From the UHGV virus genome UHGV-1570996: DNA of 19,300 bases, one strand, 5' to 3'. This stretch comes from a virus. The translations under genes were made by a program, and so were the position numbers. Shown here piece by piece: positions 1 to 8,714 of this stretch (the first letter of the stretch is position 1; each line of letters opens with the position of its first letter). The notes beneath the pieces are model-generated. The model had not been told where the DNA came from and ran no database searches. It was given only the letters and a program-made list of their open reading frames with translations.

Positions 1-134
1 CCATGATTTTCATTTTCAAATATTATTAAATAACAATTCCTATTTATAATATCTGTCATTTAATTTGCTCCAGATACAAGGAATCGCCGCAGCATGGCTA
101 CGGTTGGTATTTGTTGCATACCGAAACGGTACGA

Positions 135-163
135 TTGTTGATTTGTACAGTAGGTTTTACGAT
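135..163 (+). promoter_or_regulatory. Candidate sigma70 promoter for mnt (-35 TTGTTG at 135-140, 17-bp spacer, -10 TACGAT at 158-163)
   Basis: Hexamers read directly from sequence; AT-rich region upstream of the mnt start; near-palindrome CCACCCATTTGGTG (172-185) sits between predicted TSS and RBS. Confidence 0.25.
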
Positions 164-191
164 GCCATTCCACCCATTTGGTGAGGCATTG

Positions 192-449
192 ATGATGTAC
201 AGCAAATACGATGAGGCGCAGTTCCACTTGAGGCTTACGCACGAGTTGCACGCTAAGATTAAGCAGCGTGCAAAAATGAATAACAGGTCTATCAATTCCG
301 AAATTGTGGCTACGATGGAAGAATCACTCTCCAAACCATCACCTGTAAGCGGGTATCGTGATGAAGAAGAGAGGCTGGCCTCATTAATCTCGGAACGAGT
401 AAAAGAAGTTGCGGCTGATATCCTTAGAAAAGAAAAAACCCGCGATTAA
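192..449 (+). CDS. mnt: Mnt-like ribbon-helix-helix repressor (homolog of P22 immI Mnt)
   Basis: Translation from ATG 192 (GTGAGG RBS 6 nt upstream) gives about 85 aa; N-terminal strand-helix region FHLRL...NNRSINSEIV matches the Arc/Mnt RHH pattern (recalled P22 Mnt GRSMNSEL); C-terminal SKPSPVSGYRDEEERLA closely matches recalled P22 Mnt SKPSPVTGYRNDAERLA. The ORF-track start at 111 is judged an upstream extension. Confidence 0.7.
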   Translation: MMYSKYDEAQFHLRLTHELHAKIKQRAKMNNRSINSEIVATMEESLSKPSPVSGYRDEEERLASLISERVKEVAADILRKEKTRD

Positions 450-457
450 GCGGGTTT
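436..457. terminator. Bidirectional rho-independent terminator between convergent mnt and the ant operon
   Basis: AAACCCGC-gattaa-GCGGGTTT hairpin; on the minus strand it is followed by TTTTTCTTTTCT, on the plus strand by a weaker T-rich tract; the mnt stop codon lies in the loop. Confidence 0.6.
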
Positions 458-463
458 AGTTGG

Positions 464-685
464 TTAGTTATCAAAAAGTCCGTACGTTTCTTCTTCTTCA
501 GGTGTAAGGGGAAGAATCTCTACTCTATCTATAGATACCTTTTCAATGTACCCATGAGGTCTACTTAAAATTAAAGCTCTCTCATGCCACAGAACTCCAA
601 GAATGTGATACCTTCCAGCATCGCCTTTTACCCTGGCTCTTCCTTTGATTCTTGGCGGCATAATGCCATATTTTTTCTTTGCCAT
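464..685 (-). CDS. Hypothetical 73-aa protein, translationally coupled to the upstream antirepressor gene
   Basis: ORF with ATG at 685-683 overlapping the TAA stop of the upstream gene by one base (TAATG); basic N-terminus, acidic C-terminus; no family recognised. Confidence 0.5.
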   Translation of the reverse strand: MAKKKYGIMPPRIKGRARVKGDAGRYHILGVLWHERALILSRPHGYIEKVSIDRVEILPLTPEEEETYGLFDN

Positions 686-1413
686 TATGCAACATTACTC
701 CCATGAATCAGGTGTTGTAGTGCTTTAACACCTTCCGCATTGTAGCGGAATGCTTCCACCTGTTTGCTGGAATGCGCAGATTTATCCAGGAAGAACTTAC
801 CGTACTGCTCAGTTTTGAGGTTGTTTGCGTTAGCAATGCGACCAATCTTGTTGGCCGTTACTCCAAGCTGCTCTGCAACCTCCCCTGCTGAGTAGTAATG
901 CTCTTCTATTGCTGGAAGAGGTATTGCATTAAAACCAACGATCGGGTTGATTATGCTTGCTGCCGCAGTCTGCTTTGCTTCCGGCGCAAGATTTGGCATC
1001 AAATCGAACAGATTGGTAACAGCTTCAACCGTCATTTTCAATGTTCGCGCCTGGCGATACTCAACAAGTCCACTAGACGATTTACCGCTTTTAATGTGCG
1101 CTTCTTGCATACTTTCAAGTTGGTCTACAAGTGAGCGGCGAACAGCTTTAGATTCACGAGCAGCCACTCGAAGGGCTTGCTTAATTGACATAACAACTTT
1201 TTCAGAAGTTGTCTTGTTTGATTTTTGAACTACGAAAATTTCGTAGTGCTCACCTTCAAGTTCATCCTTAATGCGTGCAATAAAGTCGTTATTGCGGACT
1301 TCTTTTTCCCCGCACTGTCTACGAGCATGATTGACCATCTCTAACAGGTACTGGCTATCAATGGTTTTATCCGTGACAACGGATCCGATGTTTGCTACAT
1401 TCTTAAAAGTCAT
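685..1413 (-). CDS. Antirepressor-family protein, Rha-like N-terminal region with KilA-C-like C-terminal domain (ant2)
   Basis: Start chosen at ATG 1413 (AAGGAA RBS 7-8 nt upstream) rather than the track start 1464; C-terminal YYSAGEVAEQLGVTANKIGRIANANNLKTEQYGKFF resembles the KilA-C/ANT C-terminal domain; N-terminal TIDSQYLLEMVNHARRQCGEKEVRNNDFIARI resembles phage Rha regulatory proteins. Confidence 0.6.
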   Translation of the reverse strand: MTFKNVANIGSVVTDKTIDSQYLLEMVNHARRQCGEKEVRNNDFIARIKDELEGEHYEIFVVQKSNKTTSEKVVMSIKQALRVAARESKAVRRSLVDQLESMQEAHIKSGKSSSGLVEYRQARTLKMTVEAVTNLFDLMPNLAPEAKQTAAASIINPIVGFNAIPLPAIEEHYYSAGEVAEQLGVTANKIGRIANANNLKTEQYGKFFLDKSAHSSKQVEAFRYNAEGVKALQHLIHGSNVA

Positions 1414-1482
1414 TAGGCATTCCTTATGTGGTAGTAAGGGTGTGACATAGGCCGCCAGCAGCACACTGGCGGTTTTCTTTTT
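1408..1482 (+). ncRNA. Candidate sar-like antisense RNA covering the RBS and start codon of ant2
   Basis: Plus-strand -35 GTGACA (1373-1378), 17-bp spacer, extended -10 TGcTACATT (1393-1401), then a plus-oriented hairpin plus T-run at 1451-1482; no plus-strand gene is present here. Confidence 0.3.
1451..1482 (+). terminator. Plus-strand rho-independent terminator in the ant1-ant2 intergenic spacer
   Basis: GCCGCCAG-cagcaca-CTGGCGG stem-loop followed by TTTTCTTTTT on the plus strand; on the minus strand the same hairpin is preceded by an A-tract with no U-tract after it, so it is oriented for plus-strand transcripts. Confidence 0.45.
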
Positions 1483-1501
1483 GCGCCGTCCGGCGCACCA
1501 A

Positions 1502-2128
1502 TCAATGAATCCATTCCTCGCCGCGCAGTTTTGCCAGCATTGGCTGAGCGTTCTTTACGACAAAATTGTTGGTATCAAGATTCTTCATTTCACGAAGAAG
1601 TGATTTCTTGGTTTCTTCTGACATGTAGCGAGTCTCATATGCAATATCGTAAATCCTTCCTGAAAGCTCAGAACCAATTTGCTTCATTCCTGGGTAGATG
1701 TGTTTGCACATTTGTTGACTCTTCTCCATCCACAATTGTAAGTAGCAGAGATTAACCAGTTCTTCGTCAGTAAACTGTTTTGCAATCGGTGAGCATTCTG
1801 CCTGCCGATCCAAAATATCCAGCACCCAGCGGCGGAACTCTTTGGCTACCGGAGTGCGAGCAAACATCGCGATTAGGTGGGCACCGCGTAGTGAGAAAAC
1901 TCGCACTTTTTTGCGATAATTTCCTGAGGTACTCACTTCGAGTACCTGAGTCATTCCGGCGCTAAATTCATCGCTATACTTGTTATAAATCATTGTTACT
2001 GCACGACTATTTGCGTATTTAAGTGCAGATGCAATATTAGATGATGTAAACCAAACACCATGCATATCACGGGTGGGCACCAACTCAACTCCGTGGAAGT
2101 TGTAATCTGATTTTGCTACAATATTCAT
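1502..2128 (-). CDS. Antirepressor-family protein with AntA/BRO-N-like N-terminal domain (ant1)
   Basis: Start chosen at ATG 2128 (AAGGAAA RBS 7 nt upstream), giving about 208 aa beginning MNIVAKSDYNFHGVELVPTRDMHGVWFTSSNIASALKY, typical of the N-terminal domain of phage antirepressors; the track start 2233 would overlap the arc ORF. Confidence 0.6.
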   Translation of the reverse strand: MNIVAKSDYNFHGVELVPTRDMHGVWFTSSNIASALKYANSRAVTMIYNKYSDEFSAGMTQVLEVSTSGNYRKKVRVFSLRGAHLIAMFARTPVAKEFRRWVLDILDRQAECSPIAKQFTDEELVNLCYLQLWMEKSQQMCKHIYPGMKQIGSELSGRIYDIAYETRYMSEETKKSLLREMKNLDTNNFVVKNAQPMLAKLRGEEWIH

Positions 2129-2205
2129 GTTAGTTTCCTTGCATACGGTTACTGACATAGAGGCCCGGTTTGTGTTCGCGCACTGCCGGGCTTCACTATT
2201 TTTAT
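2129..2205 (+). ncRNA. Candidate sar-like antisense RNA complementary to the ant1 RBS and arc-ant1 spacer
   Basis: Plus-strand extended -10 TGcTACAAT (2114-2122) just inside the ant1 start predicts a TSS near 2129; plus-oriented hairpin GCCCGG...CCGGGC (2163-2190) followed by TTCACTATTTTTATT; arrangement parallels P22 sar as recalled. Confidence 0.35.
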
Positions 2206-2375
2206 TGGATGACAACATCGCCCTTTGCCTCAAGTTTCATCAATAACTCCATTCGATAAGCTATCTCTGCCTGAATTGACCTATGGCATCTTTTTGCTGA
2301 TTCGCGGATATGTGAATCAACCTTTTCTGTAAAACGAACCTGACGCGGCTTGATGGAAGATATCTTTTCAGTCAT
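2202..2375 (-). CDS. arc: Arc-like ribbon-helix-helix repressor (57 aa; below the ORF-track size cutoff)
   Basis: Manual translation from ATG 2375 (AGGAG RBS, 6-nt spacing) to TAA 2204-2202: MTEKISSIKPRQVRFTEKVDSHIRESAKRCHRSIQAEIAYRMELLMKLEAKGDVVIQ; strand QVRF then two helices with an RS-x-x-EI motif as in P22 Arc (GRSVNSEI); lies immediately upstream of ant1 as arc does in P22. Confidence 0.65.
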   Translation of the reverse strand: MTEKISSIKPRQVRFTEKVDSHIRESAKRCHRSIQAEIAYRMELLMKLEAKGDVVIQ

Positions 2376-2424
2376 TATGCACTCCTGTTTTTGAAAAACT
2401 CATAATCTCACTTTTTGCAGTTTG

Positions 2425-2453
2425 ATTATTCACTCACACTCAGTATGAGTCAA
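2425..2453 (-). promoter_or_regulatory. Candidate Pant-like promoter with operator repeats in the spacer
   Basis: Minus-strand -35 TTGACT (plus 2453-2448), 17-bp spacer, -10 AATAAT (plus 2430-2425), about 45 nt upstream of arc; spacer holds tandem CACTCA CACTCA plus an inverted TGAGTCA copy (plus 2431-2453), including inverted repeat ACTCA-gta-TGAGT. Confidence 0.4.
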
Positions 2454-2474
2454 TGAATTTTTTATGGTGAACTA

Positions 2475-3116
2475 ATGAATTTTGACGATCAATTCCCATC
2501 AAGAGTATCTCTGGCAAGACAGTCCAGGGGTATGACGCAGGCGCAGTTGTCAAAATTAGCTGGTGTTGTTCAACGTCAAATAGCTGCATACGAGGGTGGT
2601 GAGGCTAAACCACGGCTTCGTGTATTGCAGGCATTAGCCAACGCATTAGGTACTACGGCTGAGTGGTTAGCTCTAGGTGAAGGTCAGGGTCCAGGAACAA
2701 AAAACGTCATGCCTGACGTTCTGGTAAAGCAAATACCAATTCTCAAACTAGATGAAGTTATGCATTACCTAAACACAGGTGAACATTCATCGTCTAGATT
2801 TCATCCGGCAATATACAATGTTGGTGACTCTGCATTTGCATTGACTATTGAAGGTGAAGCTATGACTACAAGTTCAGGTATTAGCTTTCCCAGAGGATCG
2901 GTTGTCACGTTCAGCCCTCTAGTAAAAGCTAAAAGCAAAGATTATGTAATAGCATCATTGGATAAAGAGCAAATATTGAGCTTCAAACAGGTTTACATTG
3001 GTGAAATAGAGACAAACCTAGTATCCCTAAACCCAATGTATCCTAATATTCTTGTTAGAAATGAAGATGTTAGTATTTTGGCAACCGCAGTTTACCTTGA
3101 AATCCCGTTGCTTTGA
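2475..3116 (+). CDS. cI/C2-like repressor: N-terminal HTH (XRE type) and C-terminal LexA/S24-like domain with catalytic Ser apparently replaced by Ala
   Basis: 213-aa ORF with GGTGA RBS; HTH region MTQAQLSKLAGVVQRQIAAYEGGEAKPRLRVLQALANALG; C-terminal EGEAMTTSSGISFPRGSVV aligns with lambda cI EGNSMTAPTGSKPSFPDG (Ser to Ala at the nucleophile), FKQV aligns with cI FKKL, and LNPMYPNI with LNPQYPMI. Confidence 0.8.
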   Translation: MNFDDQFPSRVSLARQSRGMTQAQLSKLAGVVQRQIAAYEGGEAKPRLRVLQALANALGTTAEWLALGEGQGPGTKNVMPDVLVKQIPILKLDEVMHYLNTGEHSSSRFHPAIYNVGDSAFALTIEGEAMTTSSGISFPRGSVVTFSPLVKAKSKDYVIASLDKEQILSFKQVYIGEIETNLVSLNPMYPNILVRNEDVSILATAVYLEIPLL

Positions 3117-3176
3117 TATCCTTTAGGAAGCGACACATTATCATCTGGTATCCTGCTCAAAACTAAGGAGGTTGGT

Positions 3177-3404
3177 GTGAAGCGATGGTTCCTCATAATT
3201 ACTGTTTTCGCGATCATTTACGCTATTTTCCCTGCATTAAAAGCACCAATGCAAATAATTTCACTAGCAATAATTGCAATTGGTGCTTTCATTACAGTAT
3301 CCGTACTTGTGTTTAAGGTTTTAAAGTTTTTAGTTTGGCTATCAAAAGATGATGGATGCAAAGTTCATCAAGAAAAAGAAGGCAAAATAACCAAAGTTGA
3401 CTAA
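3177..3404 (+). CDS. Small 2-TM membrane protein (75 aa) downstream of the repressor gene
   Basis: GTG start at 3177 preceded by AAGGAGG with 6-nt spacing; two hydrophobic helices (FLIITVFAIIYAIF and IISLAIIAIGAFITVSVLVF) and a charged C-terminus; its stop overlaps the stop of convergent gp16. Confidence 0.5.
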   Translation: MKRWFLIITVFAIIYAIFPALKAPMQIISLAIIAIGAFITVSVLVFKVLKFLVWLSKDDGCKVHQEKEGKITKVD

Positions 3405-5524
3405 CTGTCACTAGCGAGCCATGTAATAATCCCAGTGCGAGCAATGGTTTTTGCTTCATCTGTTGATAGGGTTTTCTCCCATCTCTTAAATACCCCAGAT
3501 TGCATCAGTTTCCTTTCTATTGCGCGTCTCACTTCTGCTCTGTCTACTGGTGCGTTTTGCAGGCGAAATAGCATTGATTTAAACTCAGGAGAAGACAGTA
3601 GAGCATCAGCAGCCTTTATCCTGCTTGTTTTCCCTGACATCAATGCGGACGTTATCACCCCTGTTGCACCTACACCAGGAAGACCAGATAAGCTTGTAAC
3701 ACCTTCCGCCGCAGCAGCTTTTGAGGCTATTCCATAAATTTTTGCTAGACTACCCTTTTCCTTCAGAAAGTTATTAACTTGCTGATCCACAAGGCTGCTA
3801 GCATACTGCTTACCAGTATTGAGTCTATTCATAGCCTTGGCTGCTTGATAAATCGTATCAAGGCGCTTTGATGCATCTGTGCCAATAGCATCACGGAGAG
3901 CCTTCATATTGGCCCCATTGCGTGACATTCCGTTATACCATTTTACAAATCCATCAACCCCTAATTGCTGACCTGGTGATTTAGCATAGCTGGTAAATGC
4001 TTTATTCATTGAGGTGAGCGCAACTTCCTGCCGCATATCCTTTGGAATTGACTTCATTAATTGCCTAAAGTCACCACCGTTTCCTTTTGCCATATTAACA
4101 ACGGCACTTTCAACTTTTGGAATTGCTGATTGCTGAAGTTTTCTACCCAAAACGGTTACGGCATCATCTTCAATGGATTTTCGTGTTTTTACCAACTCCT
4201 TACCAAGCGTCCATAACTCCCCTGCGCCATATTTTTCTGCGACAGCCTGTTGGTCATCTGTTATAGCTGCATATAACTTTTTAAGAACACCTGTTTCTTC
4301 ATCCTTGAATGGGCCAGAGCCTTTGCCAATAGCTTGCCCAACCTGCTTTCTAGCGAGATCTAAACGCCCATACGTTGGCAAGGTGTTTGGATCAAGTCGG
4401 TTCAATGTCCGCTTCATTATTGGAGATAATTCATCAATTCCACCTATGTCATCAGCAAAATCCTCTAAAAAATTCAATGTATTGGTTGCCTCAATACGGT
4501 CTCTTACTGGAACCTTTTCGGCAATTTTGTTGTAGATGTTATCTGACTGATTTTGTAATGATGAAATGGTTTTATCAAAATTATCTGCAAGCCTGTCAGA
4601 AACCAGTTGCTTATCAAGGTTTCCCCCAAATGAAGTTATCATTTCATCAGCTTTTCTTCCTAATTCAGTAATAAAGCGCTTATGCGCCTCACTAATCTCT
4701 GTTCCAGGAAGACTTGCCACTGCATTATCAAGAGCCCTGACAGCAGGATTATTAGAGATCATTCCTGGAGTGGCATAATTTTCCAGTTCTAGCTCACGGA
4801 TGGCATTTATCGCGTTAAAATCAGGATTAACTTCATCGGCGAAACCTTGAATAGCTCGTTGCCCGCCAATAAATTTATTATCCATTGCGCCAGCAGCTTT
4901 CTTTAACGTTGCTTTAAATGATTTACTCCCCATCCCTACGGATGAGCGATAAATATCCCCGGCACTATTTTTAATTTTTCCTGCAATCTTCCCAAGCGCT
5001 GGACCAACAATCTCGGCTACAGGGCCAGCCACAGCGCCAATAGCAGCGCCGGAAGCAACATCGCTATTTGTTCCATTGGCTACAATAGCCCCTTCTCCAG
5101 CACCAAGCCCTGCGGCGGCAGCCAGCCTTGCCGCCCCTTTCGGAACCTGAGAAATAATCCCACCACCACTAACAAATGGCGCGGCTTGTCCAACAAACTC
5201 ACCAACATCTTGTGCGGTTGATGGTTTTGCCGCTAACTTCTGCTGTAGAGACTGAATTGCGGCTTGCTCTTCTGGTGTCATATCCTGAAACAGGCCAACA
5301 CCTTTACCAACATCCATCAATCCACTGAGAACGCCATACATAAAACGGTCGAAGCCGTTAGCATTATTAACAACATTTTCCTGTCTGGAATTTTCCTCTG
5401 GTGAAACCAAAGGAGATTGCTGCTGTTCTGGTTGGGCATCAAGCACAAAGCCATCAGGAAGCTGTGAGTTATCAGGCTGATTATCGAGAACAAAGCCTTC
5501 GGGTAAACCTACATCGGTTGCCAT
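3401..5524 (-). CDS. gp16-like ejection (internal virion) protein, N-terminally extended with a short tandem repeat
   Basis: 707-aa ORF at the position of P22 gene 16 (last gene of the morphogenesis operon after gp20); Ala/Gly-rich low-complexity segments; N-terminus carries [12 protein letters not shown] / [12 protein letters not shown] repeat. Confidence 0.65.
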
Positions 5525-7557: not shown

Positions 7558-8013
7558 CTATCTCCCGTGATTCAGGAAGTCGATTAGTTCTTCGCGTGTT
7601 GCGCTGTAAAACGTCACGTCATCCACGCCTTTGAAGTATTTCTTGATGGTTCCTACACGATTAAGGCCAATCATTGCGCAGTACATCTGACCGTGGCGGA
7701 ATTTGCGTGCAGCGAACGATGTGACGCACTGAACGGTGGTGTTAGTCAGAATGTATCGCCAGAACGCCAGCCCGATTTCCTTGCTGAATCCGCGAATCTC
7801 TGGCAGGTACATGGCGTGGCAATCGAATGTCAGCGGCTGAATCTCCTGATAGTAAACAATGCCGCCGAACTGCCCGTGCACGTTCACCTCAAAGTAACGG
7901 CAATCAGGTTTGTAGTCGTATCCATCACCGTTGTTGCTCCCGGCGATGATGTCAGGGTGATTTCCTACTGCTTCGATCAGGTCGATGTTTCGCGTTGGTT
8001 TGAATGTAATCAT
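7558..8013 (-). CDS. gp14-like virion assembly/ejection-associated protein
   Basis: 151-aa ORF between the tail needle and gp7-like genes, as for P22 gene 14; assignment by synteny only. Confidence 0.5.
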   Translation of the reverse strand: MITFKPTRNIDLIEAVGNHPDIIAGSNNGDGYDYKPDCRYFEVNVHGQFGGIVYYQEIQPLTFDCHAMYLPEIRGFSKEIGLAFWRYILTNTTVQCVTSFAARKFRHGQMYCAMIGLNRVGTIKKYFKGVDDVTFYSATREELIDFLNHGR

Positions 8014-8714
8014 CAGTCAATCAGCCCATGTAATCTAAGTGCTGTTTCAAGCGCCAGAATACGCTGCCGCGCCTGCTGCAAACCTGTAGCGAGAGCTGCG
8101 ACTTCGGATTGTGTGTACGTAGTGCCGACCGTGTATGACTGGTTAGCGTTGAATGAGCCAAGAAGTGGCGTACCTGTGGCTGCAGTCCATCCGGTATTTC
8201 TTGCTCCAACAACCTGAATTCCATCAACTGAATATGATGTTTTTACATCCAGCGGTGACTCAAGAGACTGCAATTCGGTTACGGTTTTCGATACGTAATC
8301 ACTCTTAATGCCAGAGACATCGTTTTCTACGTCATCCAGTCTTTGGTCAACAGTGACCAGATGCGCCTGAATATCGATAACCTCATCCAGCAAGTAATCA
8401 ACATCGCTACGCAGTACGACTATCTTCCCTTCGGCAGTTGTTAACCTGACCTCAAGTAGATTTATCGCTTTTGTGTTTGCGGTGATTCTTGCGTCGTGAT
8501 CAGCCAGTTCGACGTCCTGTTCATCGTTTTTCACCTGAGCATCGTAAGCGCCCTGACCAGCCTGATTTGCCTTCCCGGCAATTGCGCCGACATCAGCCCC
8601 CTGATTAATGACATACAGCAGGTAAGACTGGCTGAATATATTGCGTGGAAGGATTGATGTATCGAGCCGCGTCGCCTGCACAATAACAGGGGTGTTGAGA
8701 TTCGAATCAGCCAT
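8013..8714 (-). CDS. 26: Tail needle protein (P22 gp26 homolog)
   Basis: 233 aa, same length as P22 gp26; N-terminal [64 protein letters not shown] and C-terminal [13 protein letters not shown] closely match recalled P22 gp26. Confidence 0.9.

Follow-up and report, generated by a model that had tools for sequence, protein, structure and literature searches.

The window, i.e., the whole 19,300-nucleotide stretch of UHGV virus genome UHGV-1570996 that we analysed, was part of a P22-like (Lederbergvirus) prophage. Positions 1-3182 were 95% identical to Escherichia phage JEP4, and 724 of 5426 complete E. coli genomes matched positions 1-700, with identities up to 98.9-99.8%. The minus strand carried the late morphogenetic genes of the window, and a gp16-like gene was found at 3401-5524 (-). 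Near the left end, on the plus strand, there was a homolog of the P22 repressor gene mnt (195..449). Facing it was a minus-strand antirepressor (ant) operon (464..2375), delimited from the ORF list and a domain search. It encoded a 73-aa ORF (464-685), a KilA-annotated protein (685-1413), an antirepressor with BRO-N and P22AR_C domains (1502-2128) and an Arc-like ribbon-helix-helix (RHH) protein of 57 aa (2202-2375). The mnt gene and the ant operon are thus convergent, as an earlier note on this DNA had reported. The control region of the operon (2376-2474, 99 bp) had a promoter, TTGACT-17-AATAAT, on the minus strand. Divergent from the operon, a gene for a C2-like repressor with HTH and S24 domains occupied positions 2475-3116 (+).

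The variable region between gene 16 and the tailspike gene of P22-like phages is known as the “ant moron” (PMC2629481). The locus studied here belongs to this category, lying between the last ejection-protein gene and the tailspike, within the late operon, and having genes on both strands. In JEP4 the neighbours were as in the window: a 73-aa ORF, KilA, Rha/Ant, an RHH protein, a C2-like repressor and DNA transfer proteins. The mnt copy of JEP4, gp19, is annotated as “regulatory protein mnt” and was 98.8% identical to the window protein. Together with the RefSeq records WP_000287065 and WP_032202021 (“Arc family DNA-binding protein”) the range was 98.8-100%, essentially no difference from the window mnt.

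The mnt homolog, recognized with Pfam, 1MNT and tblastn, encoded 84 aa, or 85 aa if translation begins at the ATG at 192; in VSe13 and Sf101 the equivalent of the ATG at 195 is the only one present. By direct reading, a ribosome-binding site GGTGAGG was found at 180..186 (+), and it was kept in relatives. The product matched Pfam Arc PF03869 (E 4e-15, 55.8 bits vs. a cutoff of 20.4) and PDB 1MNT “Mnt repressor” (E 2.9e-16, query residues 6-78). It shared 46.6% identity (tblastn) with P22 Mnt, which has 83 aa. These matches bore out the proposed Mnt homology, and the sequence match to 1MNT settled the fold. From the N-terminus, the protein had a ribbon-helix-helix with the beta-strand QFHLR, a linker SKPSPVSGY (SKPSPVTGY in P22 Mnt) and a C-terminal helix, in the same order as in P22.

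What sets Mnt apart from Arc is a C-terminal extension of about 30 aa, the tetramerisation helix. This Mnt-type extension was present: the 1MNT alignment reached query residue 78, including GYRDEEERLASLISERVKEVAADILR vs. GYRNDAERLADEQSELVKKMVFDTLK. A conserved Mnt C-terminal region had been noticed before, and indeed SKPSPVSGYRDEEERLA shared 13/17 positions with P22 SKPSPVTGYRNDAERLA, but this stretch covers the linker and the first part of the C-terminal helix rather than the actual C-terminus. P22 Arc belongs to the same RHH fold family (PF03869) and has a similar beta-strand (PQFNLRW). However, it is a dimeric protein of 53 aa without a C-terminal helix, whereas the window protein aligned with Mnt over its full length, and the window had a separate Arc-like gene (2202-2375) besides mnt. 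Judged by sequence, domain organisation and operator geometry, the mnt product is an intact member of the Mnt repressor family. Among the relatives, the N- and C-terminal halves of Mnt recombine independently, so that, for instance, a window-type tail can follow a QFNLR head and a P22-type tail a QFHLR head.

A GC-rich hairpin, AAACCCGC-GATTAA-GCGGGTTT, was found by folding and terminator scan at 436..457, with the mnt stop codon (447-449) in its loop. It folded on both strands (-15.2 and -12.4 kcal/mol, z about -4.3) and was kept in VSe13 and in the prophage contig L068. On the minus strand the 8-bp stem was followed by UUUUUUCUUUUCU, and the terminator scan called it. On the plus (mnt) strand the same stem was followed by UUUAGUUGGUUAG (UUU and then AGUUGG), and the scan gave no call. 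We consider the hairpin a predicted canonical intrinsic terminator for the minus-strand ant operon and a plausible, but weaker, candidate terminator for mnt. Its earlier description as a bidirectional terminator holds for the folding on both strands and for the minus-strand call; for the plus strand, with its short U-tract, it is doubtful.

To the left of mnt, the window kept the remains of a tailspike start. Positions 47-104 were 93-100% identical to the DNA just upstream of the tailspike genes of many Lederbergviruses, with the homology ending at around position 47. This region included the conserved tailspike leader (60..104, -), the “boundary sequence” called bsq1 in CUS-3, with the ribosome-binding site GGAG (complement of 68-71). 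By direct reading it also included a remnant of the tailspike start, ATG ACA GAT ATT (MTDI; 48..59, -). The tailspikes of P22 and VSe13 go on as MTDITANVV, while the window departed after codon 4, and in JEP4 the MTDI remnant leads into a dead-end ORF of 21 codons. Window position 59 is exactly where the canonical tailspike gene begins in many E. coli prophages. Folding of the leader gave a small stem-loop at 87..103 (-), CCGUAGC-CAU-GCUGCGG on the tailspike-sense strand. Its alignment fold had six pairs, with G-U/G-C alternation and one pair with compensatory changes, and it was also present in P22 and CUS-3.

From the near-identical contig L006 (98.9%) and JEP4, the tailspike gene now in place (MPDITPNVV...), which has replaced the old one, begins about 225-280 bp left of the window. 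Positions 1..46, with a GC content of 17%, were a foreign spacer between the old tailspike start and the present gene; in the near-identical genomes the AT-rich DNA extends over about 270 bp up to the replaced tailspike. The G + C content was 18.6% in 1-59, 44.7% in 60-191, 42.5% in 105-191 and 47.8% in the whole window. JEP4 and E. coli E100341 shared the AT-rich left scar and also had the tailspike left of mnt, and with L006 they allowed the leftward neighbour of the window to be annotated as the tailspike gene. By its composition and broken homology, the AT-rich stretch at 1-59 is best described as a tailspike-replacement scar and not as a promoter. The earlier note had treated the whole of 1-191 as an AT-rich promoter region; a predicted promoter and operator do lie there, within 117-163, but only 1-59 is AT-rich, and that part is the scar.

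The predicted operator, CATACCGAAACGGTACG, occupied positions 117..133. It was a dyad TACC-N5-GGTA centred on 125, found by alignment with the P22 operator. Next to it we predicted the mnt promoter, Pmnt (135..163, +), with a -35 TTGTTG (135-140), a 17-bp spacer, a -10 TACGAT (158-163) and an expected start near 170. We infer Pmnt from its position relative to the P22 mnt promoter annotated in BK000583. The two elements, CATACCGAAACGGTACG (117-133) and the following ATTGTTG (134-140), shared alignment columns (alignment A2) with the annotated P22 mnt operator and promoter, where the operator abuts the -35 in the same manner (AGGTCCACCGTGGACCT followed by ATTGAGA). In the same alignment, ATTG at the -35 and TAnnAT at the -10 were kept in all operator classes. 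The predicted Pmnt would be weak, with 3/6 and 4/6 hexamer matches, and it fell below the threshold of our consensus promoter scan. P22 also has a 17-bp dyad abutting the -35 of a weak Pmnt, with equal spacing. The Mnt-operator-like palindrome that was suggested as a target of search in 1-191 is thus found at 117-133, at the same place relative to Pmnt as P22 Omnt.

The P22 operator, GGTCCAC-C-GTGGACC, differed from the window dyad, TACC-N5-GGTA with an AAA centre. The recognition strands differed as well: P22 Mnt recognizes its operator through His6, Asn8 and Arg10 in the strand HFNFR, and the window protein, with QFHLR, has Gln, His and Arg at the aligned positions in place of the P22 set. 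With respect to these two features, we found three classes. P22, with the strand HFNFR, had the operator GGTCC...GGACC (AGGTCCACCGTGGACCT followed by ATTG). ST64T, SE1, 720R6 and five IMG/VR loci, with QFNLR, had the operator AGACCACnGTGGTCT (AAGACCACnGTGGTCTT followed by ATTG). The window, JEP4, VSe13, Sf101 and prophages of Serratia and Buttiauxella, with QFHLR, had TACC-nAAAn-GGTAC (CATACCGAAACGGTACG followed by ATTG). Among the 85 QFHLR loci (22 distinct sequences), which span Escherichia, Salmonella, Shigella, Serratia and Buttiauxella, TACC, the central AAA and GGTAC were invariant or nearly so, positions 7 and 11 were free, and the flanks diverged. Computation shows the predicted operator changing together with the beta-strand recognition residues across the three classes. 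This indicates that the changed residues and operator make up another specificity class, still within the Mnt family, and that 117-133 is the predicted cognate Mnt operator, with a specificity other than that of P22.

The predicted operator was unique in the window. A position weight matrix scan of all 19.3 kb gave 28.7 bits at 117 and 8.9 for the next best site; the matrix was built from the homologous sites, so the score at 117 is high by construction and only the absence of other sites is informative. No second TACC-N5-GGTA operator was present in the window or in the 39-kb JEP4 genome, also when searching for RTACC-N5-GGTAY with up to one mismatch. We considered the one-mismatch matches as further targets and discarded them, as they were located inside coding regions at roughly chance frequency.

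These scans bear on the idea that Mnt maintains repression of the adjacent Arc-like/Ant operon from 2376-2474, as it would in P22, its gene simply having been moved to the far end of the operon. Its proximity to the operon, the analogy with P22 immI and the occupation of the canonical mnt position by another type of repressor would all fit such a role. However, the arc-proximal region 2376-2474 had no Mnt-type site (best score -10.3 bits, no CC-N5-GG). The operon has a divergent C2-like repressor and an Arc-like protein of its own, and relatives sharing this distal Mnt either lack ant or have an ant control region of quite another kind. We regard control of this operon by Mnt as very improbable.

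On the opposite strand, facing the tailspike, P22 has the strong promoter Pant (TTGACA-17-TATATT), which overlaps Pmnt and starts within the operator. The equivalent hexamers were ATGGCA-17-CAAATC in the window and TCGGCA-17-TATATC in ST64T. By eye, a C was found at the critical -7 T in the window class, ST64T and 720R6, but not in Proteus phage Brookers. The consensus promoter scan returned nothing in 1-200 on either strand, and we rejected a leftward promoter near mnt after inspecting the aligned minus strand by eye, where only decayed hexamers were seen. The Pant equivalent facing the tailspike has decayed, and neither the scan of 1-200 nor the aligned hexamers gave evidence that the mnt product switches a leftward promoter. 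The region had been described as facing whatever lies to its left and possibly controlling a different target. It does have its own left-facing control region, but the gene on that side is the tailspike, with which the late operon ends, and a credible leftward sigma-70 promoter is lacking.

The window did not have the canonical immI circuit, in which mnt is divergent from arc-ant and the operator overlaps a strong Pant, and in which Mnt keeps antirepressor synthesis off and is required to keep the lysogen. In P22, as in the window, mnt is between gene 16 and gene 9, but it is divergent from arc-ant. The window mnt was monocistronic and ended in the terminator of the convergent operon, with a decayed overlapping Pant. 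That mnt is not divergent from arc-ant as in P22 had been observed correctly, its divergent neighbour being the tailspike leader and arc-ant lying convergent and downstream. Presenting this layout as a departure from the norm was not justified, as this Mnt clade has it as a rule, in agreement with earlier descriptions of orphan mnt genes.

To place the locus among its relatives, we compared 80 IMG/VR loci with proteins 65-100% identical to the mnt product. In all 79 contigs with enough left flank, mnt adjoined and diverged from a tailspike gene with a P22-type head-binding N-terminus, with or without an ant module. Out of 81 rows (the 80 loci and the window), 27 had no ant homolog nearby, 30 had an ant module with its own proximal RHH regulator of 83-127 aa and an Arc-like gene, and 23 had a C2-like regulator as in the window. 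In Sf101, ST64T and SE1, mnt was alone between gene 16 and the tailspike, and in ST64T, SE1, 720R6 and Brookers it was directly divergent from the tailspike. A scan of genome contigs gave at least four relatives, in agreement with the other data.

Orphan mnt genes beside gene 9, as an ant moron reduced to mnt, have been reported from ST64T, ST104 and L, by Villafane et al. 2008 (PMC2629481) and, in the case of phage L, by Zaworski et al., for whom the mnt-like gene of L could be either a remnant or a gene with a new function. The orphan mnt genes of ST64T, ST104, L and SE1 resembled that of the window: they adjoin and diverge from the tailspike, with an intergenic region of ~135 bp, and have the dyad at the equal place and a weakened Pant face. 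Their Mnt proteins were about 49-57% identical to the window's, with the beta-strand QFNLR and the operator AAGACCACnGTGGTCTT. They are without any ant module, whereas the window has a complete, separately regulated one beyond mnt. The mnt gene, with its position and neighbours, has already been annotated in JEP4 and in hundreds of E. coli prophages, and the layout is known from the literature. Apparently new are the specific operator assignment, the covariation of operator class and recognition strand, and the finding that the tailspike-adjacent copies are ant-independent and strongly constrained.

The constraint was seen in substitution rates and gene integrity. Between the window and VSe13, L054, L055 and L068, dN/dS was 0.01-0.02 in the first 50 codons (dN 0.008-0.025, dS 0.95-1.84). 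More distant members gave 0.03-0.07 for the RHH domain and, at full length, 0.11-0.18. The overall value for the RHH domain was 0.01-0.03, with saturated dS. All 86 homologs, from several genera in a sample dominated by closely related E. coli prophages, were intact, with 83-88 aa and no frameshifts. The mnt gene is under strong purifying selection and is functional rather than decaying.

This weighs heavily on whether mnt is a non-functional relic of a degraded immI region. The former partners arc, ant and Pant are gone, and the phage L paper raised this possibility for L's mnt-like gene. But the low dN/dS, at saturated dS, and the 86 intact copies in several genera do not fit a relic, nor does the retention of the operator and the -10 within an otherwise diverging intergenic region. 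A relic is, in our view, highly unlikely.

In our reading, which we consider probable, the 117-449 region is a self-contained, functional “orphan” Mnt repressor/promoter/operator cassette, derived from immI and independent of the ant operon. Mnt would be made by the prophage and act at 117-133 alone. Homology, the unique operator-like site, the operator/residue covariation, synteny and purifying selection were computed, and from them we infer DNA binding, a tetramer, promoter activity and a physiological output. One relative, L068, carried a cassette 92% identical to that of the window. Between its operator-side boundary sequence and the tailspike there was a frame-broken 3' fragment of a P22-type ant with its terminator, as would be left behind if a canonical immI had lost arc and the 5' part of ant.

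The simplest history for the orphan cassette would comprise two steps. First, a canonical mnt/Pant-arc-ant-tailspike region would have lost arc-ant between the operator and the tailspike leader, the cassette then being inherited as a unit joined to the 5' boundary of the tailspike gene. Second, new ant modules with their own regulators would have entered the space separating gene 16 from the 3' end of mnt, making mnt convergent with the ant operon. In the window, the ant module would have brought its Arc-like RHH protein and its C2-like repressor.

By analogy with P22, Mnt, presumably as a tetramer via its C-terminal helix, would place its QFHLR beta-ribbons into the TACC/GGTA half-sites. The centre of the dyad would be some 45 bp upstream of the mnt transcription start, with the geometry of P22 Omnt/Pmnt. 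With the Pant-type promoter decayed, Mnt binding would no longer switch an antirepressor; its effects in the lysogen would be confined to autoregulation of mnt and occupancy of the tailspike leader. In the lytic phase, late transcripts would cross mnt in antisense before entering the tailspike gene. With just one site, located in the mnt promoter, the repressor has no obvious output, yet selection is very strong, so there is probably a further target or role; such a target may lie outside the phage.

One such role could be a trans-acting secondary immunity, in which the prophage Mnt represses the ant promoter of superinfecting or co-resident phages with the same operator type and so protects against induction by foreign Ant. 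The Mnt of a P22 prophage represses ant of superinfecting P22, a precedent from established genetics. The scar in L068 shows that the QFHLR class was once linked to ant, and strong purifying selection would agree with such a function. On the other hand, the canonical mnt-operator-arc-ant layout was found in 0/85 QFHLR loci, and the ant control regions of relatives carry other palindromes, e.g., TTGGTTCTAGAACCAA. An IMG/VR scan for the operator core CATACCNAAANGGTAC also spoke against targets in trans: among the matches listed, at least 40 were upstream of QFHLR mnt genes and at least 85 were in unrelated, chance-like contexts. As a rough, uncomputed estimate, 14 specified bases have hundreds of chance matches in a collection of IMG/VR's size, and we dismissed the unrelated matches as Mnt targets because they are consistent with chance. 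Taken together, we find immunity in trans quite unlikely. In five contigs (L104, L111, L149, L165 and L202) the exact 16-mer occurred twice, 515 bp apart, just upstream of small genes. They represent a non-P22-like phage family with terminase and methylase neighbours, and the paired 16-mers were not retained as Mnt sites but treated as a chance match amplified by duplication.

Another possible role is that of a gate on the tailspike in the lysogen. Mnt bound at 117-133, ~60 bp upstream of the old tailspike start, would together with convergent transcription from Pmnt block leftward transcription that enters or starts in the direction of the tailspike gene. Mnt would either form a roadblock or shut off a weak residual promoter, and in the lytic cycle antiterminated late transcription would override it. 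Wherever the flank was long enough, the relatives had the tailspike as divergent neighbour, whether they carried ant or not, and the operator is within the tailspike leader. In P22, Pant transcripts read into gene 9, and Villafane et al. suggest that Mnt and Arc may influence this read-through (PMC2629481). Such a gate would also account for the strong selection on a repressor without ant to control. However, there is no recognisable leftward promoter, with the C at -7 in the window class, ST64T and 720R6 (not in Brookers). The distance between operator and tailspike start is not fixed (by hand count, about 54 bp in Sf101 vs. 66 bp in the window), and the same leader is found without any mnt in many P22-like phages, for example CUS-3, N7 and Kapi1. 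Moreover, the real tailspike start in the window has moved away by more than 270 bp, and the minus-strand terminator at 436-457 already stops transcripts of the ant operon. We offer the gate as a tentative and unlikely explanation.

A related proposal is that the tailspike-adjacent Mnt proteins (QFHLR and QFNLR) are a distinct lineage that is without antirepressor control and has a conserved job at the tailspike end of the prophage; we find it doubtful. If true, Mnt would gate lysogen transcription into the tailspike and outward into host DNA, or repress targets elsewhere in the cell. Several mutually orthogonal operator specificities would then allow one prophage to hold both a distal Mnt and a proximal Mnt-type repressor without cross-talk.

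The orphan cassette has consequences beyond these proposals. The site at 117-133 is a concrete candidate operator, and the three-way natural covariation of RHH residues and half-sites could serve to derive RHH specificity rules and orthogonal repressor/operator pairs. For the prophage, the results suggest how the secondary-immunity region is wired: the ant operon would be under its own C2-like and Arc-like regulators and not under the Mnt homolog, while the Mnt cassette would be inherited separately. The strong purifying selection implies that the orphan mnt copies of these phages do something.

Several relatives that carry the same distal mnt gene had a second, proximal Mnt-like ribbon-helix-helix (RHH) gene of 83–127 aa (L020, L007, L042, L055 and others), divergent from an Arc-like gene. 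In E. coli AH19B041 this proximal copy is annotated by RefSeq as a truncated pseudogene. In each proximal Mnt-like/Arc-like region, a strong promoter of the TTGACA type was accompanied by a palindrome particular to that region, e.g., TTGGTTCTAGAACCAA or CCCCACCGTGGGG. Thus, at least five immI control types are found alongside the same distal Mnt. Domain shuffling was evident among the Mnt homologs from loci L008–L087: the RHH head, with either QFHLR or QFNLR, was combined in several ways with the C-terminal helix, which was of the window type (EEERLASLISERVKEV...), the P22 type (DAERLADEQSELVKKMVFDTL...) or the ST64T type (EAEREADI...).

The 3′ end of the distal mnt overlapped a terminator hairpin (436–457), the left arm and loop of which encode the last four codons (K T R D) and the stop codon (447–449). 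Only 14 bp separate mnt from the convergent 73-aa gene.

The operator-like 16-mer CATACCGAAACGGTAC was found, as two exact copies, in an unrelated phage family (L104, positions 7579–7594 and 8094–8109; also L111, L149, L165 and L202), having terminase and DNA-methylase genes as neighbors. Each copy lay within a repeated promoter-like element of ~80 bp, directly upstream of small genes, and the spacing of the two copies in the L104-type phages was 515 bp. The presence of the 16-mer in this family is probably a coincidence.

The tailspike mRNA leader had a conserved stem-loop of 6–7 bp (87–103, minus strand; CCGUAGC-CAU-GCUGCGG), recognized also in P22 (1086–1102) and CUS-3. Comparison across relatives revealed one compensatory pair and a G-U/G-C alternation, the latter valid only on the tailspike-sense strand. 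The stem-loop is positioned at the "boundary sequence", a junction point of modules. P22 had two copies of TGGCTACGGTGAATTTT, on either side of a segment of ~110 bp. In Sf101 (3384–3404) and IME10 the interval from the Mnt operator to the ribosome-binding site of the tailspike gene contains, in place of the hairpin, a different imperfect palindrome of 21 bp, TGCAACCATGATGTGATTGCA.

A tailspike-replacement scar was found at 1–59, and in the related genomes L006 (4776–5059) and L001 (5784–6059). Within it, the codons MTDI of the canonical tailspike start were retained (59..48, minus strand), followed by ~270 bp with 27% GC and then by a different tailspike gene (MPDITPNVV...). In JEP4 a dead-end ORF of 21 codons opens from the old tailspike start, and at the scar position of other relatives an HNH endonuclease is annotated (hits H17 and H112).

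Divergent from the Arc-like/Ant operon we found a C2-like repressor with HTH and S24 domains (2475–3116, plus strand). It has GEAM in place of the catalytic GDSM of the L068 repressor and of the immC C2 of JEP4, a separate gene in the latter, and retains the Lys of FKQ. Because of this replacement, the repressor may be unable to self-cleave. If true, this loss would bear on the SOS-inducibility of the antirepressor operon.
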